Positions 8,721 to 27,617 of a DNA stretch of 64,000 bases are shown piece by piece. Numbering within the stretch: position 1 is the stretch's first letter; the number at the start of each line of letters is the position of its first letter. Origin of the DNA: an uncultured Gammaproteobacteria bacterium (GTDB lineage: Bacteria > Patescibacteriota > Microgenomatia > UBA12405); assembly GCA_964544275.1 (NCBI GenBank), contig CAZIZX010000003.1, positions 43,705-107,704 on the forward strand. The letters are read 5' to 3'. A program made the position numbers and the translations under genes. The notes beneath the pieces were generated by a model. The model was not told where the DNA came from, searched no databases, and saw only the letters and a list, made by a program, of their open reading frames with translations.

Positions 8721-8803
8721 TTAGGTGTTTAACCTGTAAACTCCGAAAGTAGATACACTCCAGGCACAGGGCCAGGAATATTACTACTTTAAGGAGTTTT
8801 TTT
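8721..8803 (+). promoter_or_regulatory. Highly conserved 83-nt leader upstream of ParB-MTase (copy 1); about 95% identical to 27535-27617 on the opposite strand
   Basis: ttaggtgtttaacctgtaaactccgaaagtagat...ggcacagggcc..aaggagttttttt is shared by both copies, with a 5-bp cctgt/acagg stem. It is more conserved than the adjacent coding sequence. Confidence 0.55.
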
Positions 8804-10138
8804 ATGGTCAATACACCAAACATAAAAACCGTCCTCGTAAAAGTTACAGATTTAATCCCCTCGAATTACAATCCACGAAAGTGGAGCAAAGAGCAGGTTG
8901 AACAGTTAAAGGAGAGTATTCAGCGCTTCGGAATTGTCGACCCTATCATTGCTAATATTGCCGATAATCGGAAAAATATTGTCATAGGTGGACATTTTCG
9001 TCTCGCGTTAGCCAAACAACTCGGATATAAAGAAATCCCGGTTGTTTATGTAAACATTCCAGAAATTGAGCGTGAAAGAGAGCTAAACTTACGATTAAAT
9101 AAAAATCAGGGCGAATTTGACTATAGTCTGTTGGCAAAATTCGACGAGAATATATTAAGTGGTATCGGTTTTAGTAGTGAAGAGATAGACAGTATTTTCG
9201 ACATAGACGATACCAACACCGAAATTTTTGATCTGGAAAAAGAACTAAAAAAGTTGAAGATTGATGAGATCAAATTCCAAAAAGGTGATATATATGCGTT
9301 AGGAGACTCGCGTCTGATGTGCGGTGACTCAACCATCGAGGCTGACGTAATAAAATTAATGAATGGCGAAAAAGCCTCAATGTGCTTCACTGACCCACCC
9401 TATCTTTTATCCTATCTTTACGGCAAACAACGACATGGTAATCCGACAGTTGGTTTCGGAGCTAAAAAGAATCGTCGCTATTTAGAGACCGATGTGTTGC
9501 CGGACAATTTTACTGAGCTTTGGATGGCCAATATTGCCAAAATTCAAGACGAAAACTTTTCAATAATCGTTTATGAAAATTGGAAAAACATTAGAATTAT
9601 TTGGGGAGAAATGGAGAAGTACTGGCGAGTAAAAAATATGCTCGTTTGGCATCTTCCTAACCGAAACCAAGGCTATTCGGCTAAATACAAATTTTTCTCA
9701 AAACATGACATTGCTATGGTAGGAGCATCGCTTAATAGTGATATTGAATTTAATAATGAGCTAGAAATTGATGGTCTTCAGGAGGAATACGAAACGGCTC
9801 TTTATGCCATTAGTGGTAAGCCCCAATGGGAGGGTTATAAAAAAGGAAAGAAGTACCAGCCGACAGATTTTATTGAATTTAATGCCTCAGATGAAAAAAG
9901 TTCTGGCCAGGGAATAATTTTTGGCACCAAACCAATTGAAATTCTTATCCCCTATATTAAAGCCCTCACCAGAAGAGGTGATCTGATTGTAGAACCCTTC
10001 TCTGGCAGTGGTAGTACCCTGATTGCGGCTACTAAAATGAAAAGACGGTGTTATGGTATGGAAAAGTCGCCCGTCTATGCAGAGGTCATTAAAAAACGTT
10101 GGGAGAACTTAACTGGACTAAAGGGGGTAAAAATATGA
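8804..10138 (+). CDS. ParB-like nuclease domain fused to N6-adenine/N4-cytosine DNA methyltransferase
   Basis: N-terminal ParB/Srx-like region (DPIIAN...GGHFRL). MTase motif IV DPPY (CFTDPPY) and motif I EPFSGSGST. This architecture is common in phage-encoded MTases. Confidence 0.8.
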   Translation: MVNTPNIKTVLVKVTDLIPSNYNPRKWSKEQVEQLKESIQRFGIVDPIIANIADNRKNIVIGGHFRLALAKQLGYKEIPVVYVNIPEIERERELNLRLNKNQGEFDYSLLAKFDENILSGIGFSSEEIDSIFDIDDTNTEIFDLEKELKKLKIDEIKFQKGDIYALGDSRLMCGDSTIEADVIKLMNGEKASMCFTDPPYLLSYLYGKQRHGNPTVGFGAKKNRRYLETDVLPDNFTELWMANIAKIQDENFSIIVYENWKNIRIIWGEMEKYWRVKNMLVWHLPNRNQGYSAKYKFFSKHDIAMVGASLNSDIEFNNELEIDGLQEEYETALYAISGKPQWEGYKKGKKYQPTDFIEFNASDEKSSGQGIIFGTKPIEILIPYIKALTRRGDLIVEPFSGSGSTLIAATKMKRRCYGMEKSPVYAEVIKKRWENLTGLKGVKI

Positions 10139-10557
10139 AAAATAAACAGCAGGTAATCGATCAGCTTAAATTCAACCCAATTATTCAAATCGCCTGTCAA
10201 AAATCCGGAGTCAGTCGGGCCACCTTTTATCGGTGGAGAAGCGAAGATGAAGAGTTTAAAAAACAGACTGAAACGGCAATTCAAGACGGTGTCCTATTGA
10301 TAAATGATTTAGCCGAAAGTCAATTGTTGGCGGCCATTAAGGAACAAAACTTAACCGCCATAATATTTTGGTTAAAAAATCACCATGGAGACTACGCTGA
10401 CAAGATTCAGGTCAACACTGACCGAGGATTGATAGATACCAACCTAACGCCAGAAGAAGAGAAGTTAGTTAAAAAGGCTTTAAAAATGGCCGGAATTATT
10501 AATTCACCCCTTAAACATGATCAATCAAAAGCTGGACATCAAAGAGATAATAAATAA
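10135..10557 (+). CDS. terminase small subunit-like HTH protein
   Basis: HTH IACQKSGVSRATFYRWRSEDEEFK. It lies immediately upstream of and overlaps the terminase large subunit. ATGA-coupled to the MTase stop, with SD AAGGGGGT. Confidence 0.6.
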   Translation: MKNKQQVIDQLKFNPIIQIACQKSGVSRATFYRWRSEDEEFKKQTETAIQDGVLLINDLAESQLLAAIKEQNLTAIIFWLKNHHGDYADKIQVNTDRGLIDTNLTPEEEKLVKKALKMAGIINSPLKHDQSKAGHQRDNK

Positions 10558-12079
10558 CCAAAAACTTAGAAAAGAATTGGCAGTAAATAGCCTTTATTGG
10601 TTTTTTCACATCTATCTTCACGATTATGTTCATTTTAAAACGGCTGATTTTCAAAAGGAAATCATTAGCATTGCCGAAAACCAAAACCTGAAAAATGCTT
10701 TTATTGTCGCTTTCCGTGGCTCGGCTAAATCAACCTTGGCCACTTTAGCCCTCCCTTTATGGTCAATAGTAGGTAAGTATAAAAAGAAATTTATCGTTAT
10801 TATTTCTCAAACCCAATCTCAGGCTAAACTTATTTTATCCAACATTCGCGGAGAAATTGAACACAACGAATTATTTATTAAAGATTTTGGTCATTTGAGT
10901 ACTAGTTCGACTAATAATGAGTGGAATTCGGGTACTATTGTTATTGGAAAATCAGGCAGCAGAATTAGTGTCTACTCAACAGGAGAAAGTATTCGGGGCA
11001 TCCGAAATCTATCGGCCAGACCAGATTTAATCATCGGCGACGACCTTGAAGATCTGGCTTCGGTAAAAAGCAGAGACATAAGAGAACAGACTTTTAACTG
11101 GTTTACTGGGGAAATAATGCCACTGGGAGATCCAAAAACAAAGTTAATTGTCATTGGTAACTTACTCCATGAAGATTCTTTAATGATGAAAATTAAAAAC
11201 GCAATTTGTAGTGATTCATTGAGCGGTAAATTTTACGAGTATCCATTGATTTCACCAGGTGGTGCAATTGCTTGGCCAGGAAAGTATCCAACTCAAAAGG
11301 AGATTACAGAAGAAAGGAGAAAAATTGGTAATAATATTGCTTGGCATCGAGAATATTTATTGCAGATTCTACCGCCAGAAGATCGAATAATTCATTATGA
11401 ATGGATAAAATTTTATGATCAATTGCCCCTTAACATCCAAGCCAATCGGGTTGGTTATGTAATCTCTGTTGACCCAGCAATTTCTCAAAAACATACCGCT
11501 GATAAGACTGCTATTCTAGTGGGGGTGATATATAAATCAAAAGATTTTCACTATTTATACATTACCGATATCTACAACTCACAAATTAATTTCCCCACCA
11601 CTAAAGAATTGATCGAAAAATTATCCAACACGGTGGATTCGAGACGGAAAACAACGATTTTAGTTGAACAAGTTGGTTATCAAGAAGCCCTCATACAAGC
11701 CCTTAAGACTGAAGGATACCCAGTTGAAGGAATTAATCCCCACGGGAGCGACAAGAGGGCTAGATTAAGTGTCGCCAGCAGTTATGTCAAAAACGGAAAT
11801 GTATATTTTCCTAAACATAGATCTTCTGAATTAATTGATCAATTAACCAATTTTGGAGTCGAAAAGTATGACGATTTAGCCGATGCCTTTACGATGATGG
11901 TTAACGAGGTATTTGGAACTAATAATAGTCGACTAAATTCCCAAGGTCCAATAAGTGTTAATGTAATCGGACCTTCTATGTATGGAAGGAAGCCAGGTGA
12001 AGACTGGGCCGATGCTGAAGACAGACAAATGCTAGGAAGAATAAATCGAAGAGCAAAATGGAGAAGAATAATTGGATAA
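10517..12079 (+). CDS. phage terminase large subunit
   Basis: Walker A-like FRGSAKST, and a terminase ATPase plus RNaseH-like nuclease architecture over its length. About 80% identical to 24262-25821. Confidence 0.8.
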   Translation: MINQKLDIKEIINNQKLRKELAVNSLYWFFHIYLHDYVHFKTADFQKEIISIAENQNLKNAFIVAFRGSAKSTLATLALPLWSIVGKYKKKFIVIISQTQSQAKLILSNIRGEIEHNELFIKDFGHLSTSSTNNEWNSGTIVIGKSGSRISVYSTGESIRGIRNLSARPDLIIGDDLEDLASVKSRDIREQTFNWFTGEIMPLGDPKTKLIVIGNLLHEDSLMMKIKNAICSDSLSGKFYEYPLISPGGAIAWPGKYPTQKEITEERRKIGNNIAWHREYLLQILPPEDRIIHYEWIKFYDQLPLNIQANRVGYVISVDPAISQKHTADKTAILVGVIYKSKDFHYLYITDIYNSQINFPTTKELIEKLSNTVDSRRKTTILVEQVGYQEALIQALKTEGYPVEGINPHGSDKRARLSVASSYVKNGNVYFPKHRSSELIDQLTNFGVEKYDDLADAFTMMVNEVFGTNNSRLNSQGPISVNVIGPSMYGRKPGEDWADAEDRQMLGRINRRAKWRRIIG

Positions 12080-12084
12080 CTAAT

Positions 12085-12423
12085 TTATTGTCCAGGCAAT
12101 AACGAGTCGGCCTTAATCTTCAACGCTTTACTGATTTTATATAGTACGTAAGCCGTTGGAGTATATTTCGCGTTTTCAAGATGACCTACATAGGTTCGAT
12201 AAAGACCTGCTTGATGAGACAACTCTTCCTGAGACATCCCCGATTCCTCTCTGGCTGTTTTGATTCTTTCGGCTAATTTTTTGGTAAAAACATCTTTTGA
12301 TAACACAAACTCATCATATTCAAGACTCAGAATACTGCCACGCAGTATACATAGACTAAACCGATAAAATATGTCATCATATACGTGAATTAGTGATTGA
12401 AAATAATTCACGAAAGTAAACAA
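12085..12423 (-). CDS. XRE-family HTH transcriptional regulator
   Basis: C-terminal LAERIKTAREESGMSQEELSHQAGLYRTYVGHLENAKYTPTAYVLYKISKALKI matches the Cro/C1-type HTH. The 5' end is uncertain; a GTG at V40 is possible. Confidence 0.7.
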   Translation of the reverse strand: MFTFVNYFQSLIHVYDDIFYRFSLCILRGSILSLEYDEFVLSKDVFTKKLAERIKTAREESGMSQEELSHQAGLYRTYVGHLENAKYTPTAYVLYKISKALKIKADSLLPGQ

Positions 12424-12428
12424 ATTTT

Positions 12429-13502
12429 ATGGCGATAATAATTTCTAAAAATGGGAAAAACGCAATTAAGTTAGACAAGAGTAATTTCCGTTTAGAAGAC
12501 AATCTCCAACAGTACATATACGATAATCCAGAAAGCATTCCTCTCTACGATATTAAAGAAGATATAAAACTCCTGATTTTGGCTCGGGAATTTTCCACTA
12601 AAAGTGGGCCGATAGATGCCCTGGGGGTGGATAAAGATGGTGAAATATATTTAATTGAAACCAAACTTTATAAAAACCCTGATAAAAGAACAGTTGTGGC
12701 TCAAGTCTTAGATTACGGAGCTTCACTTTGGTCAAACTTTAGAGACTTTAGAAATTTTATTGAACAAATAAACCTTCACACTAATAAGGATTTTGGTAAA
12801 ACCCTAAAACAAAGATTGACAGATTTCTTTGAGATTTCTGATGATGAAATTAATTATCTACTGGAAAACACTAGAAGAAATTTAAACGATGGCAACTTTA
12901 AATTTGTTGTTCTAATGGATCATTTACACGATCAACTTAAAGACTTAATTATTTTCCTCAACAATAACAGTGAATTTACTGTTTATGCCGTTGAATTGGA
13001 ATATTACAAACACCAGGATTTTGAAATATTAATTCCGAAACTGTATGGCTCTGAAGTGAAAAAAGATATTGGTAAATCTACGGTATCAAAAACTATTTTG
13101 ACTGATGAAGAGTTTACAAACTACTACAAAGATAGATCAGAAGAACCTCTAGTCGAAGAACTTTTACATCTCAGTAACCGAATTAATGAGAATCAGAGCG
13201 ACTACCCAAACATTATGTCTATCAAGACTCCAAAATTTTTAAACTTCTATTTGACAACCTCATTTGGGGACAAAGTCTCAATTAATTTACCAGTAAATCC
13301 TGATGCTGAAGGAGGAGGACTACAGATTTGGGGCTCCGACATAAATCGGCAAAAAGTAGAGAGTGTTTTAAATGATTCCAAACTCAAATACGAAAAAATA
13401 ATATTTAAAGGGAATAAAAGCGGTAAAATTGCCAGAATTCAACTTAAAGACATCACCATTAATCAGTTTGATGATTTCTTAAAAAAATTAGCGGTAATCT
13501 AA
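12429..13502 (+). CDS. PD-(D/E)xK-type nuclease-like protein (NucS/DUF91/DUF4263-like N-domain)
   Basis: IDALGVDKDGEIYLIETKL fits the D...E.K restriction-endonuclease-fold signature. The C-terminal half is unassigned. Confidence 0.45.
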   Translation: MAIIISKNGKNAIKLDKSNFRLEDNLQQYIYDNPESIPLYDIKEDIKLLILAREFSTKSGPIDALGVDKDGEIYLIETKLYKNPDKRTVVAQVLDYGASLWSNFRDFRNFIEQINLHTNKDFGKTLKQRLTDFFEISDDEINYLLENTRRNLNDGNFKFVVLMDHLHDQLKDLIIFLNNNSEFTVYAVELEYYKHQDFEILIPKLYGSEVKKDIGKSTVSKTILTDEEFTNYYKDRSEEPLVEELLHLSNRINENQSDYPNIMSIKTPKFLNFYLTTSFGDKVSINLPVNPDAEGGGLQIWGSDINRQKVESVLNDSKLKYEKIIFKGNKSGKIARIQLKDITINQFDDFLKKLAVI

Positions 13503-13549
13503 TCCATTCATCTCCTAGACTTCCCTAAAACCTGCGGTACAGTTGTGTC

Positions 13550-14875
13550 ATGAAGAAGAAAGAAGATGGAAAGATACAAGAAAAAGAACAAATAAAATTT
13601 TGCCTCTACGCTAGAAAATCATCCGAATCCGATGAGCGACAGGCTATGTCGATCGAATCTCAAATCAATGAGATGAAGGAGCTGGCAAAAAGAGAAAATC
13701 TACTAATTAAAGAAGTCCGACAAGAAAGTCACTCGGCCAAATTATCATCTCAAAGACCAGTCTTTAACCAATTATTGATTGATATCAGGGCTGGAGAATT
13801 TACTGGGATACTAACTTGGGCTCCTGATAGATTGAGCCGAAATGCAGGGGATCTTGGAACACTGGTAGATTTAATGGATCAGGGGAAATTACAAACGATA
13901 CGGACATATTCACAATCCTTTTCCGATAATCCAAATGAGAAATTCTTGCTAATGATTCTCTGCTCTCAGGCAAAACTGGAAAATGACAACAGAGGCATCA
14001 ATGTTAGACGTGGGATGAAAGCCAAATGCGAAGCTGGATGGCGACCCAATATGGCCCCGCTTGGATATCGTAATGTAATGAATTACAACCGGATAAGTTA
14101 CGTTGAAATTGACGAAGAAAGAGCGCCGATAATAAGGCAGATGTTTAACCGGGTGGGGAATGATGGCCATAGTGGTAAGACCATAAAAAAGTGGCTGGAT
14201 AGAATCGAATTTACCACCCGAAGCGGAAAACCATTAGCATTAAGTAAGGTTTATACAACCTTAAAAAATCCATTTTATTATGGTGAATTTGAATTTAATG
14301 GCAAGATTTATAAAGGCAAACACGAGCCCTTAATAACTAAGGAATTATTTGAAAAAGTCCAGCTCCAATTGGTGGCTCCGGATAGAGAATGGAATAAAAA
14401 AGTCTTTCCTTTCAGAAGTCTTTGCTACTGTGGAACTTGTGGCGAAAGAGTGACAGCTGAGGAAAAATATAAAAAGAATAAATCTGGTGGAGTCAGAAAA
14501 TATATCTACTATCACTGTGGTAAACATATAAATTATGACTGCGATGAACCCTATATTAGTGAGGAAGACCTGATCCAACAACTGGTCATCCACATTGATG
14601 AAATAAAATTACACGAAAAAGAACTTACCCAATATTTAAAACAGGACATTGATAAATTCCACAGATTAAGAGATGAAGTCCTTAATCAGGAAATTATAAG
14701 CGGAAAATTAATCGAACTCGATTATGATGCCTTTAACCATATTGGCAAAGATAAAATCAAGGAATATTTAATCTATGTTCTAAAATTTGGAACGGCAGAA
14801 GAAAGACTTAAAGTAATGTCAGCCATAAAAACCCGATTTATCCTACACAATAAAGAGTTAACCATTAAACAATAA
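13550..14875 (+). CDS. large serine recombinase (phage integrase type)
   Basis: Resolvase catalytic region YARKSSESDERQAMSIESQ (catalytic Ser), a recombinase domain, and zinc ribbon CYCGTCGE...YYHCG. Confidence 0.85.
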   Translation: MKKKEDGKIQEKEQIKFCLYARKSSESDERQAMSIESQINEMKELAKRENLLIKEVRQESHSAKLSSQRPVFNQLLIDIRAGEFTGILTWAPDRLSRNAGDLGTLVDLMDQGKLQTIRTYSQSFSDNPNEKFLLMILCSQAKLENDNRGINVRRGMKAKCEAGWRPNMAPLGYRNVMNYNRISYVEIDEERAPIIRQMFNRVGNDGHSGKTIKKWLDRIEFTTRSGKPLALSKVYTTLKNPFYYGEFEFNGKIYKGKHEPLITKELFEKVQLQLVAPDREWNKKVFPFRSLCYCGTCGERVTAEEKYKKNKSGGVRKYIYYHCGKHINYDCDEPYISEEDLIQQLVIHIDEIKLHEKELTQYLKQDIDKFHRLRDEVLNQEIISGKLIELDYDAFNHIGKDKIKEYLIYVLKFGTAEERLKVMSAIKTRFILHNKELTIKQ

Positions 14876-14897: not shown

Positions 14898-15977
14898 ATG
14901 ATAAAAATCCAAAAAATATTTTTAGTTATTGTCCTATTTATTTGTACTCTCATTATTTTTCCTGTTTCCATAAAAGCAATTGGTGATGGTTCTTCAGTTG
15001 AGGCGACCATCACTCAAATAATTGAAGAAAAAGAAATAGAAATAATGGAATCGAATCAACTTTATCAAAAACTCGAACTAGAATTGTCTACTCCTGATCA
15101 TAAAAAAGTGATTATTGAAAATGGCAACCAACCCATGGCCAACATTATTAAATACGCGGTTAATGATCGAGTATTAGTTAATGTTATGGAGGGAGTGGGA
15201 GGAGAAGAATATGTGGTTACTGACTTTGTCCGTAAAGACAGTTTAGTGCTTCTGTCAATAATTTTTGTGATCCTCTTGGTACTCATTGCTAAATGGAAAG
15301 GACTTTCTTCCCTGCTGGGAATGATATTTACTTTCTTTGTTGTCTTTATTTTTATTCTTCCCGGGCTTTTAGCTGGTAACAATCCTATTTTAATTGCTGT
15401 CGGAGCGTCTTTGGTGATAATTCCTGTTTCTTTCTATCTAGCTCACGGATTTAATAAAAAAACTACTATTGCCATCGTTAGTTCTATTATCAGTTTAATA
15501 ATTACTGCCGCCCTAGCTTCAATCTTCACTCAAATTGGTCATTTAACTGGATTATCTTCAGAGGAGGCGGGGATGCTATCAATTGGTCAGAGTAATTTAA
15601 ACATGAAAGGAATACTCCTTGCTGGAATTGTCATCGGCGCTTTGGGTGTACTTGATGACATTACTATTTCTCAAGCGGCCATTGTTGACGAACTAGCCAA
15701 AACCGCTAATTTAACTAAAGCCAAAGATCTCTACACTCGGTCAATGGTCATTGGTAAAGACCATATTACTTCCATGGTAAATACTTTGGTTTTGGCTTAT
15801 ACAGGTGCGTCTTTACCTTTACTTTTAATTTTTACCAACAACCCCCATCCATTTATGGAAATTATTAATTATGAATTAATCGCCGAAGAAATAATCAGAA
15901 CCCTAGTTGGTAGTATTGGTCTAATTTTAGCAGTACCAATTACTACCATGATTGCGGCTAACTCTTATAAAAAATAA
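14898..15977 (+). CDS. YibE/F-family polytopic membrane protein
   Basis: N-terminal extracytoplasmic segment followed by about 6 TM helices. The pattern is typical of YibE/F. Confidence 0.55.
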   Translation: MIKIQKIFLVIVLFICTLIIFPVSIKAIGDGSSVEATITQIIEEKEIEIMESNQLYQKLELELSTPDHKKVIIENGNQPMANIIKYAVNDRVLVNVMEGVGGEEYVVTDFVRKDSLVLLSIIFVILLVLIAKWKGLSSLLGMIFTFFVVFIFILPGLLAGNNPILIAVGASLVIIPVSFYLAHGFNKKTTIAIVSSIISLIITAALASIFTQIGHLTGLSSEEAGMLSIGQSNLNMKGILLAGIVIGALGVLDDITISQAAIVDELAKTANLTKAKDLYTRSMVIGKDHITSMVNTLVLAYTGASLPLLLIFTNNPHPFMEIINYELIAEEIIRTLVGSIGLILAVPITTMIAANSYKK

Positions 15978-15990
15978 AGTTAATTTATTT

Positions 15991-16959: not shown

Positions 16960-17233
16960 TTTTGCTAATTTTTATAGCCTTGCCCTTGATTATGGCAATA
17001 GCAATTTTTTTGTAGGCTTTATCTAGAATCCGCCCAAAAGTGGGTTGTGACACATTCATTTTTTTAGCCGCTTCAATTTGATCTAATTCATCAACATCGT
17101 GCAACTTTAAAGCCTCCAGTTCATCTGGTAATAATTCAATTTCTTCTAAAACTGATAAAGGCACACCCCGGGGTTTGAAGTAAACCACCTCGGGGTTAAA
17201 CCTTAAACATCTAGGATTCTTTGGTCTGACCAT
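16943..17233 (-). CDS. DUF134/UPF0251-family DNA-binding protein
   Basis: MVRPKNPRCLRF.P.V.YFKPRGVP...LEEIELLPDELEALKL.D...L.Q.EAAKKMNVSQPTFGRIL..A..KIA matches the DUF134 signature closely. Confidence 0.7.
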   Translation of the reverse strand: MVRPKNPRCLRFNPEVVYFKPRGVPLSVLEEIELLPDELEALKLHDVDELDQIEAAKKMNVSQPTFGRILDKAYKKIAIAIIKGKAIKISKNENKK

Positions 17234-17236
17234 ATC

Positions 17237-17497: not shown

Positions 17498-17605
17498 ATT
17501 GCCTCCTATTTAGATAAATTAATAATAATGAATATATATTCATTATATTCTTTATTAAAGCCTAGTCAAGTACCTGTCGTAAAAAGCCATTAAAAAACCA
17601 ACAAT

Positions 17606-19099: not shown

Positions 19100-19207
19100 G
19101 TCTAATTATATCAATTCTATTGACTTTAACTCTTATTTATTCCCGTTTTATCCTTTTAATTTCCGTAAAATGCTATCATTAATATACTTATTGATTAACT
19201 TTTTATC

Positions 19208-19888: not shown

Positions 19889-19893
19889 CTATT

Positions 19894-20490
19894 ATGATGA
19901 AATTGAAAAATAGAAAAAATAACAAATTAATTTATTTATCATTAGTTTTGATAGTGTTGGCCATATTATTGATTACTATAAAACCAATTAATAATAGACA
20001 AACCTCAAATCAAAACCAAAATACTGTCAATCGTCAAAATTGTCTGGCTGATGATTGTTTATTGGTCGATAATTTTGATTATCCAGCTGGTGAATTATCC
20101 CAATCTGTCAAAGATGCTTTAGACGAAGCAATTAACGATGAATATAAAGCTTTGGCCATCTACGAAGCGGTTATTTCTAAACTTGGTAGTGTTAGACCAT
20201 TTTCCATGATCAAAGGAGCCGAAGAACAACACATTGCTTCTTTAAAAGCTGTTTATGATAAGTATGGAATAATTCCTCCAGCCAATACCTTGTCTGGAAC
20301 ATTAACTGCTCCCGAAACCCTTAAAGAAGCTTGTCAAATTGGAGTTGAGGCGGAAATTGCCAATGCCGCCCTCTATCGTGAAGAGCTTATCCCAGCCGTC
20401 AAAGATTATGAGGACATTACCAATGTCTTTACCAATCTAATGAATGCTTCACAGGAAAAACACCTAAGCTCCTTTGAGAGGTGTAATTAA
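19894..20490 (+). CDS. membrane-anchored DUF2202/ferritin-like protein
   Basis: TM anchor, then DEYKALAIYEAVISKLG...EEQHIASLKAVYDKYG, resembling the rubrerythrin-like DUF2202. Confidence 0.5.
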   Translation: MMKLKNRKNNKLIYLSLVLIVLAILLITIKPINNRQTSNQNQNTVNRQNCLADDCLLVDNFDYPAGELSQSVKDALDEAINDEYKALAIYEAVISKLGSVRPFSMIKGAEEQHIASLKAVYDKYGIIPPANTLSGTLTAPETLKEACQIGVEAEIANAALYREELIPAVKDYEDITNVFTNLMNASQEKHLSSFERCN

Positions 20491-20894
20491 ATAGACTGTT
20501 TTTTTTGGTGGGCTTTCATTAGACAGACCCCACTAATTATTTGCAAGCCACTTTCTTGGGCTAATTTTTCAGCCTTTAAGTTTTGAGTTCCATCTTGAAA
20601 CCAAATCACTGGATTTTGATTAGATTTAACTATTTCTTCAACAATCGGTAGGACTTGGTCTGATTTACGAAAAATATCAACAATGTCAATCTTAATATTT
20701 GAAGGAATATCACTAAAATTTTGATAGGAATTAAGACCAAAAACAGAGTCGATGGTTGGGTTTACAGGAATAACAGTGAAGCCTTGAGAAATGAGGTATT
20801 TGGCTACCTGAAAACTAGGACGATCAGGTTTATCAGAAAGTCCGATAATAGCGATGGTTTTTGACTTTTTTAAGATTTTTTCAAGAGAAATCAC
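20487..20894 (-). CDS. CoA-binding domain protein (YccU/YneT family)
   Basis: KTIAIIGLSDKPDRPSFQVAKYL...GFTVIPVNP is the typical CoA-binding Rossmann-like motif. Confidence 0.7.
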   Translation of the reverse strand: MISLEKILKKSKTIAIIGLSDKPDRPSFQVAKYLISQGFTVIPVNPTIDSVFGLNSYQNFSDIPSNIKIDIVDIFRKSDQVLPIVEEIVKSNQNPVIWFQDGTQNLKAEKLAQESGLQIISGVCLMKAHQKKQSI

Positions 20895-21028
20895 GATAAT
20901 TCATTATATATCATAATCCACTATTACAGGCATATTTTAAGCATAATACCGAAACTCAAAAAAATATAAGGGAAGATTAGGGATTCCTAGCTATACCATT
21001 AAAATTACATGGAAAGATAGGTTAAAAG

Positions 21029-21110
21029 CGGAGAGAGAGGGAGTCGAACCCCCAAGCCCTTGCGGGCGGCGACTTTCGAGGTCGCTGCCTTACCATTCGG
21101 CGCATCTCTC
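21029..21110 (-). tRNA. tRNA-Ser (anticodon CGA), long variable arm
   Basis: Reverse complement folds as GGAGAGA/TCTCTCC acceptor, anticodon loop CUCGAAA, long variable arm, and GGTTCGACTCC T-arm. Confidence 0.8.
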
Positions 21111-21113
21111 CAG

Positions 21114-21190
21114 TTGGTACGCTCGAGAGGGGTCGAACCTCCAACCGCTGGTTCCGCAAACCAGTGCTCTATCCAATTGAGCTACGAGCG
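21114..21190 (-). tRNA. tRNA-Arg (anticodon GCG), CCA encoded
   Basis: Reverse complement reads GCGCTCG TA GCTC AATTGGATA GAGC A CTGGT TTGCGGA ACCAG CGGTT GGAGG TTCGACC CCTCT CGAGCGT A CCA. Positions 34-36 are GCG. Confidence 0.75.
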
Positions 21191-21220
21191 CATTAACAGT
21201 GAATTATACCCTAAACTAGC

Positions 21221-21778
21221 TTAATTTTCTCTGTTTTCCAAAGGAAGTCTTTCAATAAACCACTTACTGGCCTTATCCACAAAATTGGGTGAATTTTCTA
21301 CTAGTGGAATTTTCTTAATTATAATCTCTTTTAGTTTCTCTTTGTCTTTTTCTTCTACTACCAAAGACACCTGTGGCGGAAACCTTAAATTAGTTTCAAG
21401 CAGCATTGTCTCAGTTCCCAAACTTTTCTTAAACCAAAACCTTACCAACTGTTCCCACGGATACATTAATTCACCAAAATATATTCCTCTGTTGGTAATT
21501 TTATTTTTGATTTTTTCCGGAGGCACCGTCGACAAGACATAATACAAAAACAATACCGACCCCAACGCCATAATCAAGAAAAACTCCTTCAACAAAAAAA
21601 ATATCACCGACACTATAACCAAAATTGCCACTGAAGTAATCCAAAAATCCTTGTCTCTGACTTTATACACTCTTTCATGGGCTTCCCACTCATACAAAAC
21701 CACTTCTTCATTCAAATCCTTAAAGGACGCATCAACCGCATCAAGATCTTTTTCTACTTTATTTGCCATTAATAACAC
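21221..21778 (-). CDS. small membrane protein (two TM helices) of unknown function
   Basis: Intact 185-aa ORF between tRNA genes, with central hydrophobic helices. Confidence 0.5.
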   Translation of the reverse strand: MLLMANKVEKDLDAVDASFKDLNEEVVLYEWEAHERVYKVRDKDFWITSVAILVIVSVIFFLLKEFFLIMALGSVLFLYYVLSTVPPEKIKNKITNRGIYFGELMYPWEQLVRFWFKKSLGTETMLLETNLRFPPQVSLVVEEKDKEKLKEIIIKKIPLVENSPNFVDKASKWFIERLPLENREN

Positions 21779-21825
21779 TATAAATCATTTTGCCTGAATT
21801 TGGTATACTTAAACGCATCTTGAAA

Positions 21826-21911
21826 GGAAGGTTGCGGCGAATGGTAAGCCACAGGTTTGCTAAACCTGCGTCCGAAAGGGCATGTGGGTTCGACTCCCAC
21901 ACCTTCCGCCA
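21826..21911 (+). tRNA. tRNA-Ser (anticodon GCT), long variable arm, CCA encoded
   Basis: GGAAGGT acceptor, anticodon loop TTGCTAA, long variable arm, GGGTTCGACTCCC T-arm, and 3' ACCTTCC-G-CCA. The track ORF 21790-22047 is spurious. Confidence 0.8.
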
Positions 21912-22032
21912 AAGGGTCAAAGTTCTATGCGACCCTGTTGGTAGTCAAGTTTTGCCCCAACTTGTTGACGTATATTCTTCAAATTCAACATTTTTCGATT
22001 TAATGGCCTGTAATAGGGTAAATCGTGTAAAC

Positions 22033-22863
22033 CTAATTTTTAGGTAAATGAGTTCTCCATCCCCACTCTCCATTCACATTTTTAGCGATAACCATGTCAT
22101 TAATCAAATTGGACAATAAAGTAATTATGAATAACTGTACGAATTCGGAAATATATTTCAATACTTCGTCCATATATTCATGCACATAAGCTGTCTCATT
22201 TTCACTTACTAAAATAATCGGTGGGTACACCTCTTTTTTGCTTACTGAATACCTAAACCCTTGAACATTTTTCAATTTCCCATAGTGAACAGTACTGTCT
22301 CTATGGGCGACGATTTTAGTGATTGCCTCCGCATTATCTTTAATTAAATTTGATATCGCTTCGGCGTGTGGCTTAATATCATTGTTTAAGTTTCTCGAAA
22401 GCACATCTACAATTTTCATGCCACTAATGTCGTTTTTTCTTTCCCATGTATGAAATTCTTGACCGTATATTGGCTTTAAACTTTGAGCTAACAAATCAAG
22501 AGATGTCTTAATTTGACCAAAGAATGCCTCGATTAAAATAAAAGCATCCACCTTATTGAAAAGCATGTCTATACGAGTATCTTGGATAGTAGAGTCTTTT
22601 TTAACATCTTCGATCAAAATGTCTTTAACTTTATGATAATTTCTCCTTAATGCATTGGCTTTTACAAGTGCATTAACTGAAAGCATTACTTTTTTAAGAA
22701 AAAGCTCATCGGTCTTGTCAATCTTTAGCTGGTTGTGACCCCAAAACTTTACCACTTCAAGTATGTTGGTGTTTTGAACTATGAGCAAAATTTCTTCCAG
22801 TAAAATTTTATCGATATCATCAACTATCTCAATCTCCTGGGTTAAAGTCAGTTGGTCTTCCAT
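22033..22863 (-). CDS. Abi-like protein with candidate HEPN Rx4H motif
   Basis: C-terminal AHRDSTVHYGKL fits the Rx4-6H motif. Its start is 25 nt downstream of serine recombinase copy 2 on the same strand. The assignment is tentative. Confidence 0.35.
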   Translation of the reverse strand: MEDQLTLTQEIEIVDDIDKILLEEILLIVQNTNILEVVKFWGHNQLKIDKTDELFLKKVMLSVNALVKANALRRNYHKVKDILIEDVKKDSTIQDTRIDMLFNKVDAFILIEAFFGQIKTSLDLLAQSLKPIYGQEFHTWERKNDISGMKIVDVLSRNLNNDIKPHAEAISNLIKDNAEAITKIVAHRDSTVHYGKLKNVQGFRYSVSKKEVYPPIILVSENETAYVHEYMDEVLKYISEFVQLFIITLLSNLINDMVIAKNVNGEWGWRTHLPKN

Positions 22864-22888
22864 AACTGAAGTATACCCCGCACTTGGT

Positions 22889-24217
22889 TTAATTGATTTT
22901 TATGGTGATCTGTTTGTTATGAAGTATGAACTTTGTCTTAATTGCTGACAATATTTGAATCCTATCTTCTGCCGATCCGGCTTTTAGGACATGGAGTAAG
23001 TATTCCTTTGCAGTGTCACGGTCTAGAGGTACTTTTTGCGGGTAATCAAATTGGTTTAGATTTCCGGCAAGGAATTCTTGGTGTAACACCTCACCTCTCA
23101 GCGAGTGGAATCTCTCTATTTCTTCTTTTAGTTGTTCGGTTAGTAATTTCTCATCCAATTTTATTTCATCAATATGGGCTATTAGTTGTTGGATTAAATC
23201 CTCCTCGCTGATGTAGGGTTCGTCGCAGTCATAATCCACATGTCTACCACAATGGTAGTAAACGTATTTTTTGAATCTTCCATATTTATACCTTTTGTAC
23301 TTTTCCTCCGCTGTTATCCACTCCCCACAACTACCGCACTTACATAATCCCCGGAACGGGAATAGTTTTTTATGCCATTCTTTTTCCGGGACATACAATT
23401 GCTTTTGTACCTTGTCATAAAGTTCTTTTGTTATTAATGGCTCATGATTACCTTTGTAGGTTACCCCTCCGAATTCAAACTCTCCGTAGTAATAAGTATT
23501 CTTTAATGTTGCGTAGACTTTACTCAATGCCAGAGGCTTTCCGCTTCGAGTAGTGAATCCGATTTTGTCCAGCCACATTTTTATGACTCTACCACTTTGG
23601 CCTTTTTCTCCAACCCGGTGAAACATCTGTTTTATTGTTGGTGCCCGATCTTTATCAACTTCGACATAGCTTATTCGGTTGTAACTCATGACATTGAGAT
23701 ACCCCAGTGGAGCAATGTTTGGTCTCCATCCAGCCTCACATTTGGCTTTCATTCCCCGTTTTACATTTATTCCCCGATTATCATTTTCAAGTTTTGCCTG
23801 AGAGCAGAGGATCATCAGCAGGAATTTTTCATTGGGGTTATTTGAGAATGATTGAGAAAATGTCCGGATAGTTTGCAGCTTTCCCTGATCCATCAAATCA
23901 ACCAGCGTTCCCAAGTCTCCTGCATTTCTGCTTAATCTGTCCGGTGCCCAAGTAAGTATTCCGTCAAATTCTTTCGCTCTGATATCGATTAGTAGTTGAT
24001 TAAAGACGGGTCTGAGCCTCGATGATTTAGCCGAGTGACTTTCTTGCCTGATTTCTTTAATAAATAGTTTTTCCCTTTCGGCCAGTGTTTTCATCTCGTT
24101 GATTTGAGACTCAATCGACATGGCTTGGCGTTCGTCTGATTCCGATGATTTTCGGGCATATAGGCAGTACCTTATTTGTTTTATTTCCTCTATCTTTCCA
24201 TCTTCTTTTCTCTTCAT
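22889..24217 (-). CDS. large serine recombinase (copy 2; about 80% identical to 13550-14875)
   Basis: YARKSSESDERQAMSIESQ catalytic motif and a zinc-ribbon region. Collinear with copy 1. Confidence 0.85.
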   Translation of the reverse strand: MKRKEDGKIEEIKQIRYCLYARKSSESDERQAMSIESQINEMKTLAEREKLFIKEIRQESHSAKSSRLRPVFNQLLIDIRAKEFDGILTWAPDRLSRNAGDLGTLVDLMDQGKLQTIRTFSQSFSNNPNEKFLLMILCSQAKLENDNRGINVKRGMKAKCEAGWRPNIAPLGYLNVMSYNRISYVEVDKDRAPTIKQMFHRVGEKGQSGRVIKMWLDKIGFTTRSGKPLALSKVYATLKNTYYYGEFEFGGVTYKGNHEPLITKELYDKVQKQLYVPEKEWHKKLFPFRGLCKCGSCGEWITAEEKYKRYKYGRFKKYVYYHCGRHVDYDCDEPYISEEDLIQQLIAHIDEIKLDEKLLTEQLKEEIERFHSLRGEVLHQEFLAGNLNQFDYPQKVPLDRDTAKEYLLHVLKAGSAEDRIQILSAIKTKFILHNKQITIKIN

Positions 24218-24261
24218 AACACAACTGTACCGCAGGGTTTAAGGAAGTCTAGGAGATGTAA

Positions 24262-25821
24262 TCAGCCCCAAATTCTTCGCCAGTTACCGCTAGGATTGAG
24301 ATTATCAAAAATACTTCTGTCATCAGCATCAGCCCAGTCCTCACCTCTATTGCCACAGTATGCCCTGATATTTGCTTTAATTACTACCGGGCCCTGATTG
24401 AATAGGTGAGTATTGTTTGTCCCAAATACTTCGTTAACCATCATAGTAAATGCATCAACTAGATCGTCGTATCTTTCAACTCCAAAATTGACCAATTGGT
24501 TTACCAGCTCGGCCGATCCATATCGGGGGAAAAATATACTCCCATTTTTGACATAACTACTGGAAATATTAAGTCTGGCTCTTTTATCGCCTCCATGTGG
24601 ATTGATTCCTACAGCCGGGTATCCTTCCTTTTGCAATGCCTGAATCAAGGCTTCCTGATAACCAACTTGTTCAACTAAAATCGTAGTCCTATATTTTGGG
24701 TTAACCGTATTTGACAAATTTTCAACTAAATCCTTGGTGGTTGGAAAATCGGCCTGCAGGTTATAAATATCCGTAATGTAAAGGTAATGGAAATTGGCTG
24801 ATTTATAGATTACTCCTACTAAAATGGCCGTTTTATCAGCGGTGTGCTTTTGAGAGATTGCCGGATCAAGTGAAATTATAAAACCAACACAATTGGCGGC
24901 AATATGGCTCGGTAAGGCATCGTAATACCTTATCCATTCGCTTTTAATAATCCTGTCCTCAGGTGGCAGAATTTGTAGTAGATACTCCCGATACCAAGCA
25001 ATATCATTTCCAATCTTTCTTCTTTCCTGACTGATTTCCTTTTGGGTTAGGTATTTACCAGGCCAAGCAATTTTATTATCCAATGACACTAACGGGTACT
25101 CAAAAAACTTGCCATCTAATGTATTGTTGATGATTCCATTTTTGATTTTCATCATCAAAGAGTCCTCATGAAGTAAATTACCGATCACGATTAATTTTGT
25201 CTCTCTATCGCCCAACGGCATAACATCTCCGGTGAACCAGTCGAAGTTTTGATTTCTTATTTCTTTGTTTTTAACCGAAGCTAAATCTTCCAAATCATCA
25301 CCGATAATTAAATCAGGTCTAGTAGCTAGGTGACGGATACCCCGAATACTTTCCCCGGTTGAATAAACACTTATCCTTATACCTGACTTTCCTAAAACAA
25401 TTGTGCTTGAATTCCATTCGCTGTTAGTCGGATCGGTACTTAAATGACCAAAATCTTTGATAAATAATTGGTTTGTCTCCAACTCCCGTCGGATATTTGA
25501 TAGGATTAGCCTTGCCTGTGACTGGGTTTGGCTAATGATAATAATAAAATTCTTTTTATGTTTGCCAATAATTGACCATAAGGGCAGGGCAAGGGTGGCT
25601 AGGGTTGATTTAGCTGATCCCCGGAAGGCAACGATAAAAGCGTTTTTAAGTGTTTGATCTTCGGCAATGCTAATAATTTCCTTTTGGAAGTCAGCCGTCT
25701 TAAATTTTACATAATCATATAGATAAATATGGAAAAACCAATAAAAACTATTTATCGCCAACTCTTTTCTCAGTTTTTGGTTTTTTATTATCTGTCCGAT
25801 GTCCATTTCTTGATTGATCAT
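24262..25821 (-). CDS. phage terminase large subunit (copy 2)
   Basis: FRGSAKST Walker A. About 80% identity to 10517-12079 along the full length. Confidence 0.8.
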   Translation of the reverse strand: MINQEMDIGQIIKNQKLRKELAINSFYWFFHIYLYDYVKFKTADFQKEIISIAEDQTLKNAFIVAFRGSAKSTLATLALPLWSIIGKHKKNFIIIISQTQSQARLILSNIRRELETNQLFIKDFGHLSTDPTNSEWNSSTIVLGKSGIRISVYSTGESIRGIRHLATRPDLIIGDDLEDLASVKNKEIRNQNFDWFTGDVMPLGDRETKLIVIGNLLHEDSLMMKIKNGIINNTLDGKFFEYPLVSLDNKIAWPGKYLTQKEISQERRKIGNDIAWYREYLLQILPPEDRIIKSEWIRYYDALPSHIAANCVGFIISLDPAISQKHTADKTAILVGVIYKSANFHYLYITDIYNLQADFPTTKDLVENLSNTVNPKYRTTILVEQVGYQEALIQALQKEGYPAVGINPHGGDKRARLNISSSYVKNGSIFFPRYGSAELVNQLVNFGVERYDDLVDAFTMMVNEVFGTNNTHLFNQGPVVIKANIRAYCGNRGEDWADADDRSIFDNLNPSGNWRRIWG

Positions 25822-26203
25822 GTTTTGATGTTAAATTAATAACTCCAGCCATTTGTAAGGCCTTTTTTACCAAACTCTCTTCTTCCGGCGTTAGGTTACT
25901 ATCAATCGGCTTTTGATCGGTACTGACCTGAATCTTGTCGGCATAGTCAGCATGGTGATTTTTGAGCCAAAATATTATGGCGGTTAAATTTTGATCCTTA
26001 ATTGCCGCCAGCAGTTGGCTCTCGGCTAAGTCATTGATTAACAAAACACCATCCCTGATTGCGTCTTCAGTCTGTTTCTTAAAATCTTCATCTTCGCTAC
26101 GCCAGCGATAGAATGTAGCCCGACTAACTCCGGATTTTTGACAGGCGATTTGAATAATCGGATTTATTTTTAATTGTTCCAATACTTGGGACTTATTTTT
26201 CAT
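25748..26203 (-). CDS. terminase small subunit-like HTH protein (copy 2)
   Basis: IACQKSGVSRATFYRWRSEDEDFK, with ATGA coupling to the upstream MTase stop. Confidence 0.6.
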   Translation of the reverse strand: MKNKSQVLEQLKINPIIQIACQKSGVSRATFYRWRSEDEDFKKQTEDAIRDGVLLINDLAESQLLAAIKDQNLTAIIFWLKNHHADYADKIQVSTDQKPIDSNLTPEEESLVKKALQMAGVINLTSKHDQSRNGHRTDNKKPKTEKRVGDK

Positions 26204-27534
26204 AGTTTTACTCCTTTTTGCCCGGTCAGATTTTCCCAGCGTTTTTTAATGACTTCGGCGTAGACTGGCGATTTTTCCATACCATAGCATCGGCGTTTCA
26301 TTTTGGTTGAGGCAATTAATGTGCTACCACTTCCCGAAAATGGTTCAATAATCAGGTCGCCCCGTCGGGTAAGGACTTTAATATAAGGAATTAAAATTTC
26401 TATTGGCTTGGTACCAAAAATAATTCCTTGCCCGGAGCTTTTTTCATCCGAAGCATTGTATTCAATAAAATCAGTCGGCTGGTACTTCTTACCTTTTTTA
26501 TATCCCTCCCACTGCGGGTCACCTGAGATTGCGTAGAGGGCAGTTTCGTATTCTTCCTGCAAGCCATCCGTTTCCGGTTCCATATTAAATTCAACATTAG
26601 TATTTGGAGATGCCCCTACCATGGCAATGTCGTGTTTGGAGAAGAATTTATGTTTAGCGGAATAGCCTTGATTTCGGTTAGGAAGATGCCAAACGAGCAT
26701 ATTTTTTACCCGCCAGTACTTTTCCATTTCACCCCATATGGTTCTAATATTCTTCCAGTTCTCATAAACGATAATTGAAAAATTTTCCTTTTGAATTTTA
26801 GAGATATTGGCCATCCATAACTCCGTAAAATTGTCGGGCAACACATCCGTCTCCAAATATCGGCGATTCTTTTTAGCGCCAAAACCGACCGTTGGATTCC
26901 CATGCCGTTGCTTGCCATTTAGATAATCCAAAATATAAGGCGGGTCAGTAAAACACATATCCGCTTTCTCGCCACTCATCAGCTTTAATACATCAGCTTC
27001 AATAGTCGAATCACCACACATCAGACGGGAATCACCAAGGGCGTAGACATCACCTTTTTGGAAATTAATTTGGTCAATTTTCAGCTTTTTTAATTCTTTC
27101 TCCAGATCAAAAATTTCAGTATTAGTGTCGTCAACGTCAAAAATATTATCGATTTCTTCACTACCAAAACCAATGTCTTTTAATAGATTTTCATCAAACT
27201 TTGCCAGAAGGCTATAATCAAACTCACCTTGGTTTTTGTTCAACCGTAAGTTTAATTCTTTTTCTCTTTCAACTTCAGGAATGTTTACATATACTACGGG
27301 AATTTCCGCGTATCCTAACTGTTTTGCCACCTCGAGTCGAAAGTGTCCACCTATTACAATGTTGCGCCTATTGTCAGCAGAATTAGCTATAATAGGGTCG
27401 ACAATTCCAAACCTAACTATACTTTCTTTTAGCTGCTCAATCTGCTCTTTGCTCCATTTACGAGGGTTGTAATCTGAGGGAATTAAATCAGTAACTTTGA
27501 CCAGGACCGTTTCTATTTTGGTGGTGTTGACCAT
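26200..27534 (-). CDS. ParB-like nuclease domain fused to DNA methyltransferase (copy 2)
   Basis: Same architecture and motifs (CFTDPPY, EPFSGSGST) as 8804-10138. Confidence 0.8.
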   Translation of the reverse strand: MVNTTKIETVLVKVTDLIPSDYNPRKWSKEQIEQLKESIVRFGIVDPIIANSADNRRNIVIGGHFRLEVAKQLGYAEIPVVYVNIPEVEREKELNLRLNKNQGEFDYSLLAKFDENLLKDIGFGSEEIDNIFDVDDTNTEIFDLEKELKKLKIDQINFQKGDVYALGDSRLMCGDSTIEADVLKLMSGEKADMCFTDPPYILDYLNGKQRHGNPTVGFGAKKNRRYLETDVLPDNFTELWMANISKIQKENFSIIVYENWKNIRTIWGEMEKYWRVKNMLVWHLPNRNQGYSAKHKFFSKHDIAMVGASPNTNVEFNMEPETDGLQEEYETALYAISGDPQWEGYKKGKKYQPTDFIEYNASDEKSSGQGIIFGTKPIEILIPYIKVLTRRGDLIIEPFSGSGSTLIASTKMKRRCYGMEKSPVYAEVIKKRWENLTGQKGVKL

Positions 27535-27617
27535 AAAAAAACTCCTTAAAGTAGTAATATTCCCGGCCCTGTGCCTGGAACGGATCTACTTTCGGAGTTT
27601 ACAGGTTAAACACCTAA
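27535..27617 (-). promoter_or_regulatory. Conserved 83-nt leader upstream of ParB-MTase (copy 2)
   Basis: Reverse complement is about 95% identical to 8721-8803. Confidence 0.55.

Follow-up and report, generated by a model that had tools for sequence, protein, structure and literature searches.

Why should a chromosome carry, twice and in opposite orientations, the enzymes that fill a phage head with DNA together with none of the proteins that build one? The question is raised by a 64,000-nucleotide stretch of contig CAZIZX010000003.1 (positions 43,705 to 107,704; the whole stretch is hereafter the window), in which two copies of a four-gene module face each other across a cluster of tRNA genes. 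Each module encodes a fusion of a ParB-like domain with a DNA methyltransferase (ParB-methylase), the small and large subunits of a phage-type terminase (TerS and TerL), and a large serine recombinase. An earlier interpretation made without database searches (the sequence-only reading) proposed a satellite or mini-prophage family present twice, its inverted layout perhaps arising by recombination between the copies. Comparison of the window with homologous loci (numbered L001, L010 and so on) strongly supports the view, on gene content and alignment, that the modules represent two separate insertions of a mobile island that is widespread in Patescibacteria (the Candidate Phyla Radiation, CPR). 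A large part of bacterial diversity is accounted for by the Patescibacteria, with tiny genomes and few recognised mobile elements. Gene exchange and phage resistance in this group are poorly understood, and one island type present in hundreds of species would provide a concrete handle on both.

Two Separately Maintained Copies of One Packaging Module

Pfam and PHROGs profile searches upheld the domain assignments of the sequence-only reading for all four genes (Table 1). The recombinases of both copies contain the three domains characteristic of large serine recombinases (PF00239, 2.6e-20; PF07508, 9e-16; PF13408, 2.7e-9), and their N-terminal domain matches the catalytic domain of the TP901-1 integrase (3bvp). 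TerL combines the packaging ATPase and RNaseH-like nuclease parts of a large terminase, as judged from sequence motifs and profiles, and residues G68-S69-x-K71-S72-T73 (Walker A), D175-D176, D319, and D452-D453 do not vary among 32 homologues; its catalytic motifs appear intact, and the genes are predicted to be functional. TerS is a small protein encoded directly upstream of TerL in an overlapping frame, as is usual for small terminase subunits, and has further PHROGs matches (phrog_4044, phrog_2538, phrog_1482), its Pfam support being weak. The coordinates of the open reading frames (ORFs) bear out the gene coupling described earlier, i.e. an ATGA overlap between methylase and TerS and TerS/TerL overlaps of 41 and 74 nt in the two copies. 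An exact-protein look-up with the recombinase of copy 1 returned a single 7.7-kb contig with an identical arrangement.

Alignment by blastn matched 8721–11930 (+) to 27617–24408 (−) with 77.2% identity over 3212 nt, and 13509–14869 (+) to 24258–22898 (−) with 74.0% identity over 1363 nt. At the protein level the copies share 89.6% (methylase), 82.9% (TerS), 74.8% (TerL), and 75.2% (recombinase) identity, which agrees with an earlier estimate of about 80%; the collinearity claimed along with it is broken by an extra 1.4 kb (12085–13502) between TerL and the recombinase of copy 1, absent from copy 2. In all four genes the proportion of synonymous differences between the copies (pS, Nei-Gojobori) is saturated at 0.58–0.79, with non-synonymous differences (pN) at 0.06–0.15, a pattern indicating that all four are under strong purifying selection. 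Saturated synonymous sites combined with low pN imply that the copies are old and have been maintained separately, and the sequence-only reading was right to discount an assembly duplication. There is no third copy of the module in the window, the rest of which carries ordinary cellular genes (histidyl-tRNA synthetase, the tRNA cluster) and several defence systems.

A Capsid-less Terminase Lineage

Pfam detected no family of capsid, portal, tail, or lysis proteins among the scanned window ORFs, and a search there for the portal that accompanies related phage terminases (see below) was likewise without a match, in agreement with the gene content first described. Structural-gene scans covered the window and the 10-kb flanks of the homologous loci: in ~88 loci the 10 kb to each side contain no structural gene, and ~100 element loci lack the cognate portal. 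The head, tail, and lysis modules that stand beside the terminase in a prophage are thus missing, and the lack of virion structural genes is that of satellites.

The module resembles the packaging module of temperate siphophages in gene order, overlapping frames, and protein families. The best match to TerL from a cultured phage is only 29% identical and the nearest phage TerLs, which also have an upstream ParB-methylase, are 34–41% identical; in these comparisons TerL is not close to that of any known phage. Among IMG/VR contigs, those with a TerL at least ~41% identical carry the full module with the recombinase, and those at or below 41% lack the recombinase. In two of the phage contigs (L110 and L123) the order is ParB-methylase, an unidentified ORF at the TerS position, TerL, a portal (phrog_2662, 1e-99 to 1e-106), and then HNH or tail genes. 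In 29 phage loci this portal stands directly behind TerL; no element locus shows it there, and the window does not contain it. Whereas TerL leads into portal and head genes in the siphophages, it leads into the serine recombinase in the islands, and in a neighbour-joining tree the 102 TerLs that have a TerS or recombinase of element type close by group as a single clade, separate from the phage proteins and without a portal-linked member. A single TerL clade that is never linked to a portal suggests descent from a phage packaging module followed by a long, separate capsid-less history, and all but rules out independent prophage decay. That the portal and structural genes were replaced by a large serine recombinase is strongly supported by these gene neighbourhoods.

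Short contigs of the capsid-less element (L089–L104) are listed as viral genomes in IMG/VR. Proviruses have been reported in 20% of CPR metagenome-assembled genomes (MAGs) (PMC12960796); since IMG/VR labels the islands as viral, such frequencies may partly count these elements.

An Island Family across the Patescibacteria

The names attached to TerL homologues include Shapirobacteria, Berkelbacteria, and Moraniibacteria, and a contig of a Shapirobacteria MAG (L010) is 94% identical to 2069–12061 of the window. Six neighbourhoods of TerL homologues, down to 46% identity, all contain the ParB-methylase, TerS, TerL, and a large serine recombinase, usually with a restriction-modification (RM) system on the methylase side. 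Among the 600 pattern matches listed, with one genome per species, at least 466 are confirmed relatives, labelled Woese-, Shapiro-, Sacchari-, Parcu-, Moranii-, Berkel-, Gracili-, Peri-, and Komeilibacteria, Paceibacterota, and others; these labels are the depositors' own and some are clearly wrong ('Gammaproteobacteria', 'Methanoregula'). The notion of a satellite family present twice thus stands as regards a capsid-less family pairing a serine recombinase with packaging genes in two copies, and its range is far wider than was guessed; its satellite status we infer from arguments given below.

Every genome locus with sufficient flank contains the trio of methylase, TerS, and TerL, and nearly every one the recombinase, which starts 117–340 bp after TerL in ~24 loci and 1–8 kb after it in ~31. 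When 1380 flanking ORFs from 67 loci were clustered all against all, the recurrent families were the methylase (66), TerL (66), the recombinase (57), and TerS (43), followed by an S24 repressor (23), an HTH_3 helix-turn-helix protein (14), and a 136-aa gene (13); none of the recurrent families is structural. As in the window, two loci occur in one MAG in other cases (L018 with L032; L036 with L059).

Evidence for mobility comes from loci that share the element in unrelated flanks. L028 ('Saccharibacteria') and L040 ('Paceibacterota') are 98% identical in TerL, 97% in the methylase, and 92% in the recombinase, and their flanks do not align. Three loci (L027, L034, and L048) share a 6.04-kb unit comprising an S24 repressor, a 210-aa gene, methylase, TerS, TerL, and recombinase, which ends exactly at the recombinase stop codon; they also share a left-terminal block of ~300 bp lying ~4 kb upstream, with differing cargo in between. 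Near-identical modules in unrelated flanks, together with the empty sites in relatives described below, argue that the element is mobile. It is also mosaic, the recombinase of L070 being 92% identical to that of copy 1 and its TerL only 43%.

Some loci contain tandem TerL pairs within one module (L030, L044, L084, L065), 40–46% identical to the query. Several others, among them L020, L051, L054, L061, L065, and L070, are labelled Gammaproteobacteria, Methanoregula, Flavobacteriaceae, Bdellovibrionales, or Nitrospirota; because their flanking genes and tRNA clusters match those of CPR loci, they are probably mis-binned or mislabelled CPR contigs.

Insertion at tRNA 3′ Ends

The comparisons strongly support a model in which the recombinase would direct the island into tRNA genes, most often tRNA-Ser, at their 3′ ends. 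The host tRNA cluster between the modules is syntenic in L007, L070, and L183, and its two tRNA-Ser genes each abut an element right end. The 11-mer CTATTACAGGC occurs exactly twice in the window, is invariant, and lies ~94–97 bp off a tRNA-Ser 3′ end in both cases. Homology among the window, L003, and L007 starts exactly at this right-end motif, (A)TTACAGGC, and in 22 metagenome contigs sharing the tRNA-Ser(GCT) flank it likewise starts at TTACAGGC, most of them having a recombinase with 74–76% identity 0.6–1.2 kb to the left. In L020 the motif lies 69 bp past the recombinase. The serine integrase occupies the tRNA-proximal end of the element, and the first tRNA gene downstream of it is convergent in all 27 loci that have one (15 tRNA-Ser, five tRNA-Gln, and the rest Asp, Glu, Lys, Met, and Pro). 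The tRNA-Ser(CGA) genes of L007 and L183 have neither the motif nor an element behind them, as expected of empty sites. With the two tRNA-Ser genes of the window divergent and each recombinase converging on its own tRNA, the inverted layout follows without recombination between the copies.

At the other end, a left-terminal block (~125 bp) begins sharply at GCGGAG in seven instances, with unrelated sequence to its left each time. L020, L044, and L078 also have it, oriented like the methylase and upstream of that gene. GCGGAG is identical to the six bases with which the tRNA-Ser(CGA) 3′ end begins (21028–21033), and GCGGA is present at the tRNA-Ser(GCT) end. This is the only repeat shared between left end and tRNA end; such a short core is that expected of a serine integrase, and a 5–6 bp repeat fits a serine recombinase. 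Of the att direct repeats that the sequence-only reading proposed to look for at the module edges, only this short form is present, at element ends that lie outside the modules; no long direct repeat of either tRNA-Ser turned up when the far ends were searched. A search of the left ends for the right-end 11-mer or its 9-mer variant gave nothing above chance. The left block is tRNA-like, yet not a copy of the neighbouring tRNA. The islands thus resemble tRNA-associated genomic and defence islands in using a tRNA 3′ end with fixed polarity, in forming arrays of intact and degenerate elements, and in carrying defence cargo, but differ from these in that the latter normally use tyrosine integrases and a long direct repeat that regenerates the tRNA end, in contrast to the 5–6 bp repeat and degenerate tRNA-like left end seen here.

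L183 contains a right terminus (TTACAGGC plus ~96 bp) that runs straight into a GCGGAG left block (~1195–1350 in the oriented locus; raw 10614–10664), 720 bp ahead of a second right terminus and tRNA-Ser(GCT). A junction of this kind would be expected of attP or of two elements in tandem.

Element 1 probably spans 249–21027 (20.8 kb), as judged from its terminal sequences. With its right end at 21027, most of the '8-kb core' of the sequence-only reading (14898–20894) would be element 1 cargo. The left end of element 2 lies at or beyond 27617 and the element probably includes the type I RM arm to ~36.6 kb; the block at 53768, the only left block in the right orientation, would be the outermost possible left end. 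The G+C content steps from 0.32–0.37 to 0.40–0.46 just past the block at 53646–53768, which marks either the end of a very large island or the start of highly expressed core genes. On either boundary the elements are larger than the four-gene modules, with cargo slots and termini that reach beyond 8721–27617.

Three further observations concern these sites. Arrays of intact and degenerate elements make the tRNA-Ser sites look like hotspots, with recombinase remnants in L180 and L185. TTACAGG, contained in CTATTACAGGC, has its complement CCTGTAA in hairpin 1 of the leader described below (8741–8747) and in the L034-type left block (~4105; AAGCCCTGTAAGG); this could be a shared protein-binding site, e.g. 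a TerS pac site or one for a recombination directionality factor, or chance. The tRNA-Arg of the cluster (21115–21191, −) has the anticodon GCG, where the bacterial counterpart usually has ACG, and recurs in the same cluster of L005, L007, L070, and L183.

Three candidate interpretations of these features were discarded. An archaeal origin, hinted at by the tRNA-Arg(GCG), is contradicted by homologues that place the window in Patescibacteria. CCTGTAA in the leader was rejected as a left att site, the left terminus being 8.5 kb further out. The left block as a displaced copy of the adjacent tRNA end is unsupported, pairwise alignments to the neighbouring tRNAs not being significant.

A Candidate Leader RNA and Other Regulators

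Each methylase gene is preceded by a structured leader that is 95% identical between the copies, as compared to 77% for the adjoining coding DNA, and this identity stays at 89–96% in L010, L001, and L003, including where that of the methylase protein has fallen to 32%. The leader folds into two hairpins (z = −3.25), the second of which pairs AAACUCC with the ribosome-binding GGAGUUU, burying the AAGGAG site, and is followed by U7 and the AUG. Compensatory changes were observed in 6 of 23 leader pairs, and pairing is kept in the diverged versions of L007 and L070. Rfam contains no match for the leader or for the left-terminal repeated block, and searches with a leader covariance model gave no copies beyond the Microgenomates-type subfamily. 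Based on its fold and conservation, the leader is a candidate new cis-regulatory RNA of one element subfamily that may keep the packaging operon silent.

Protein regulators are of two kinds among the 67 loci, a divergent S24 repressor of LexA/CI type in 23 and an HTH_3 gene past TerL, as in copy 1, in 14. Copy 2 has no regulator gene of S24 or HTH_3 type in the window. Serine integrases with predictable tRNA-end targets and a conserved leader RNA offer testable molecular parts.

Comparison with Known Satellites

Within the SatelliteFinder survey, the core genes include terL only in phage-inducible chromosomal islands that form capsids (cfPICIs), which also encode capsid, portal, and connector genes (PMC10085698). 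Small terminases alone are carried by marine virion-encapsidated integrative mobile elements (VEIMEs) and by PICI-like elements (PLEs) (PMC9618062; bioRxiv 10.1101/2024.04.22.590561). The islands described here resemble phage-inducible chromosomal islands (PICIs), including the Staphylococcus aureus pathogenicity islands (SaPIs), in their size (~6–20 kb), fixed att site, own integrase, repressor, own TerS, lack of virion genes, and role as anti-phage hotspots. They differ from PICIs in their Patescibacteria hosts and in having a large serine recombinase rather than a tyrosine integrase, plus TerL and ParB-methylase; a primase/replicase, an AlpA/Stl-type regulator, and a capsid-size remodelling gene were not found. 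The pri-rep core gene of PICIs is not among the recurrent genes of the 67 loci or in the window modules. cfPICIs, the only described satellite family with terL together with terS, encode capsid, portal, protease, and head-tail adaptor/connector proteins and steal only tails, whereas the islands lack all of these proteins and have terL with terS. Because pri-rep is missing they are not PICIs, because structural genes are missing they are not cfPICIs, and none of the four described satellite families fits.

The PLEs of Vibrio cholerae share with the islands a large serine recombinase, their own TerS, and interference with helper packaging (bioRxiv 10.1101/2024.04.22.590561). They differ in possessing a replication initiator and many ICP1-specific effectors. 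PLEs are restricted to one species, and we know of no TerL or ParB-methylase described in them. No description of such an element in Patescibacteria was found in the full-text literature searched, although one may exist outside it, and the island type is apparently undescribed.

A Possible Satellite Lifestyle and Its Alternatives

We give a probability of about one half to the full reading of the element as a tRNA-targeting integrative island with a packaging backbone that moves as a phage satellite. The packaging operon would normally be off, through an S24/LexA-type or HTH repressor in many relatives and, in the window's subfamily, also through the leader RNA burying the ribosome-binding site. 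Infection by a helper phage, or DNA damage, would lead to production of the island's terminase holoenzyme, whose TerS would pick island DNA and whose TerL would pump it into helper procapsids. Travelling in this way as a phage satellite, the island would have its DNA protected by the methylase once in a new host. Such a lifestyle is plausible from the gene content.

Several observations weigh against this reading. No helper phage was identified in the data examined, and the island's own TerL would have to dock on a foreign portal, the old and distinct clade to which it belongs (at most 41% identical to known phage TerLs) being unlike what frequent helper exchange would produce. A normal capsid would be left partly empty by elements of 6–20 kb, and no gene for capsid remodelling was seen. 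No replication family (initiator or primase) is present among the recurrent genes of the 67 loci or in the window modules; to our knowledge, every well-studied satellite family has one. An excised form is also missing, in that 19 whole contigs have no terminal overlaps indicative of circles and the predicted attP junction has no match in IMG/VR. Transfer between classes is read from depositors' labels, with the errors noted above. As for the extent of the elements, a homologue of the 226-aa gene (68% identical) lies 5 kb from the empty tRNA-Ser(CGA) site of L183, which weakens the assignment of 14898–20894 as cargo, and L185 has homologues of window genes (48.7–51.5 kb) outside its own block, which speaks against the block at 53768 as the left boundary of element 2.

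A broader proposal, which we put forward tentatively and at rather less than even odds, is that the family constitutes an ancient CPR-wide lineage, the first satellites of Patescibacteria, with TerS and TerL but no capsid or replicase, using the capsids of unrelated helpers. If true, the satellite concept would extend to a design that keeps only the whole packaging enzyme, the elements would possibly pack neighbouring chromosomal DNA too, and they could be a principal route for defence systems and other genes between deeply divergent lineages that lack conjugation.

The consistent position of the module among defence systems, the lack of replication and capsid-size genes in the 67 loci, and the strong purifying selection on all genes would also suit a domesticated anti-phage device. 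Terminase and ParB-methylase would then sabotage the packaging of incoming phages, by cutting or mis-packaging phage DNA or by titrating procapsids, the recombinase would only place or keep a defence island, and cells would exchange it only now and then, through transformation or generalised transduction. Satellites already described do interfere with the packaging of their helpers (PMC9618062; bioRxiv 10.1101/2024.04.22.590561). However, a TerS–TerL holoenzyme, an integrase, defined termini, and tRNA targeting are the anatomy of a mobile thing, near-identical copies sit in unrelated flanks, and interference and transfer can coexist; we regard a purely defensive role as unlikely.

We consider it decidedly unlikely that the module belongs to a split virus or a system resembling a gene transfer agent, in which structural genes elsewhere in the genome would allow it to pack DNA into the cell's own particles. 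A full terminase is otherwise found in known satellites only alongside their own capsid genes, as in cfPICIs (PMC10085698), and the S24 repressors suggest autonomous SOS induction. Yet no structural gene occurs in the flanks of ~88 loci or in the 64-kb window, and the elements move between genomes as 6–20 kb units without structural genes, horizontal transfer being seen. CPR genomes, moreover, are streamlined and only ~1 Mb in size.

Decaying remnants of two ordinary prophages that lost their structural genes would explain why the order ParB-methylase, TerS, TerL is that of real phages and why automated pipelines call such regions viral (as in IMG/VR). Random decay would not converge on the same minimal set with intact ORFs in ~100 independent loci, with a recombinase always right after TerL or one cargo slot away and a monophyletic, never portal-linked TerL under strong purifying selection, and on these comparisons this explanation appears close to refuted. 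Inversion through recombination between the copies around a shared host core, as the sequence-only reading suggested, is very improbable: the copies are inverted repeats, and gene order near the site varies among relatives so that rearrangements do occur there, but at 74–77% identity with saturated synonymous sites they are too diverged for homologous recombination, each has a complete right terminus at its own divergent tRNA-Ser, and relatives exist with one site filled and the other empty.

Cargo Genes

Cargo occupies three slots of the island, in which RM and other anti-phage systems accumulate: one to the left of the methylase, one separating TerL from the recombinase, and one on the far side of the recombinase, up to the right terminus. 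The second of these measures 0.1–8 kb in other loci. Its ORFs most often match ResIII, N6_Mtase, Eco57I, and MmeI type IIG enzymes; KAP NTPase, PifA, and Ltp, a superinfection-exclusion lipoprotein, are found there too. In the slot upstream of the methylase, the commonest matches across the loci are to RM components and SMODS/AGS_C, and RM systems occupy the position of the copy 2 defence arm in L001, L003, L006, and L007. Next to the right terminus, L003 and L007 carry genes different from the 276-aa gene of the window. The cargo of L034 includes a pair (SMODS and Cap15) resembling a cyclic oligonucleotide-based anti-phage signalling system (CBASS), and many cargo proteins are without a family match.

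Table 1. Features of the two islands, their insertion sites, and their cargo (window coordinates)
Feature	Position	Strand	Remarks
Element 1 left-terminal block	249-393	+	sharp start at GCGGAG (249-254); tandem ATGAGACA x2, TATAAAAAAG, degenerate stretch resembling a tRNA 3′ end
Element 1 left cargo arm	394-8663	mixed	also unknown genes of 313, 611, and 218 aa
GajA/OLD-family nuclease	394-2061	-	PADLOC GajA, 2e-48
573-aa protein	2929-4650	-	two RNAP-alpha-CTD repeats, sigma70-r4, HARE-HTH (Pfam)
C5 cytosine methylase	7422-8663	+	PADLOC MTase_II, 4e-101
Structured leader, copy 1	8721-8803	+	83 nt before the methylase ATG
ParB_N + N6/N4 DNA methyltransferase, copy 1	8804-10138	+	Pfam ParB_N, N6_N4_Mtase
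TerS, copy 1	10135-10557	+	140 aa; PHROGs phrog_309, 3.3e-11
TerL, copy 1	10517-12079	+	520 aa; PHROGs phrog_38, 1.3e-87; Pfam Terminase_6C/6N
Slot between TerL and recombinase, copy 1	12085-13502	mixed	HTH_3 and PDC-S11-like genes
HTH_3 regulator	12085-12423	-	Pfam; probably shorter than the ORF
PDC-S11-like protein	12429-13502	+	357 aa; candidate defence family; PADLOC 6.5e-16
Large serine recombinase, copy 1	13550-14875	+	441 aa; Pfam Resolvase, Recombinase, Zn_ribbon_recom; phrog_95 integrase, 3.7e-68
Probable element 1 right cargo arm	14898-20894	mixed	YibE/F, polysaccharide deacetylase, DUF134, DUF5320, CoA-binding, unknown proteins of 497 and 226 aa
198-aa gene	right arm, within 14898-20894		weak DUF2202 match only
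Element 1 right terminus	20921-21027	+	CTATTACAGGC at 20921-20931, then ~96 bp, then tRNA-Ser(CGA) 3′ end
Host tRNA cluster	21028-21911	mixed	ARAGORN and Rfam: tRNA-Ser(CGA) (-), tRNA-Arg(GCG) (-), DUF5673 gene (-), tRNA-Ser(GCT) (+)
tRNA-Ser(CGA)	21028-21111	-	abuts element 1 right end
tRNA-Ser(GCT)	21826-21911	+	abuts element 2 right end
Element 2 right terminus	21912-22016	-	CTATTACAGGC at 22016-22006, ~94 bp from tRNA-Ser(GCT) 3′ end
Element 2 variable cargo gene	22033-22863	-	276 aa; between recombinase and terminus; no family match
Large serine recombinase, copy 2	22889-24217	-	Pfam
TerL, copy 2	24262-25821	-	Pfam Terminase_6N; 74.8% identical to copy 1
TerS, copy 2	25748-26203	-	PHROGs phrog_309, 9.6e-11
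ParB_N + N6/N4 DNA methyltransferase, copy 2	26200-27534	-	Pfam
Structured leader, copy 2	27535-27617	-	95% identical to copy 1 leader
Defence arm by copy 2	27666-36549	-	co-directional; YgjP peptidase, HsdR, HsdS, PD-T7-4, NYN nuclease, HsdM, partial HsdS; Pfam, PADLOC
PD-T7-4 homologue	32825-33547	-	PADLOC 1e-83
Second left-terminal block	53646-53768	-	81% identical to the 249-393 block; orientation as expected for element 2

Within the type I RM operon beside copy 2, PD-T7-4 and the NYN protein (32825–34457, −) are inserted between hsdS and hsdM, and a partial second hsdS lies at 35974–36549. Beside the C5 methylase of element 1, five minus-strand genes form a string at 394–7092 (the GajA/OLD-like nuclease and proteins of 313, 573, 611, and 218 aa), mostly without a family match, which, from its composition and position, may be an undescribed defence system.

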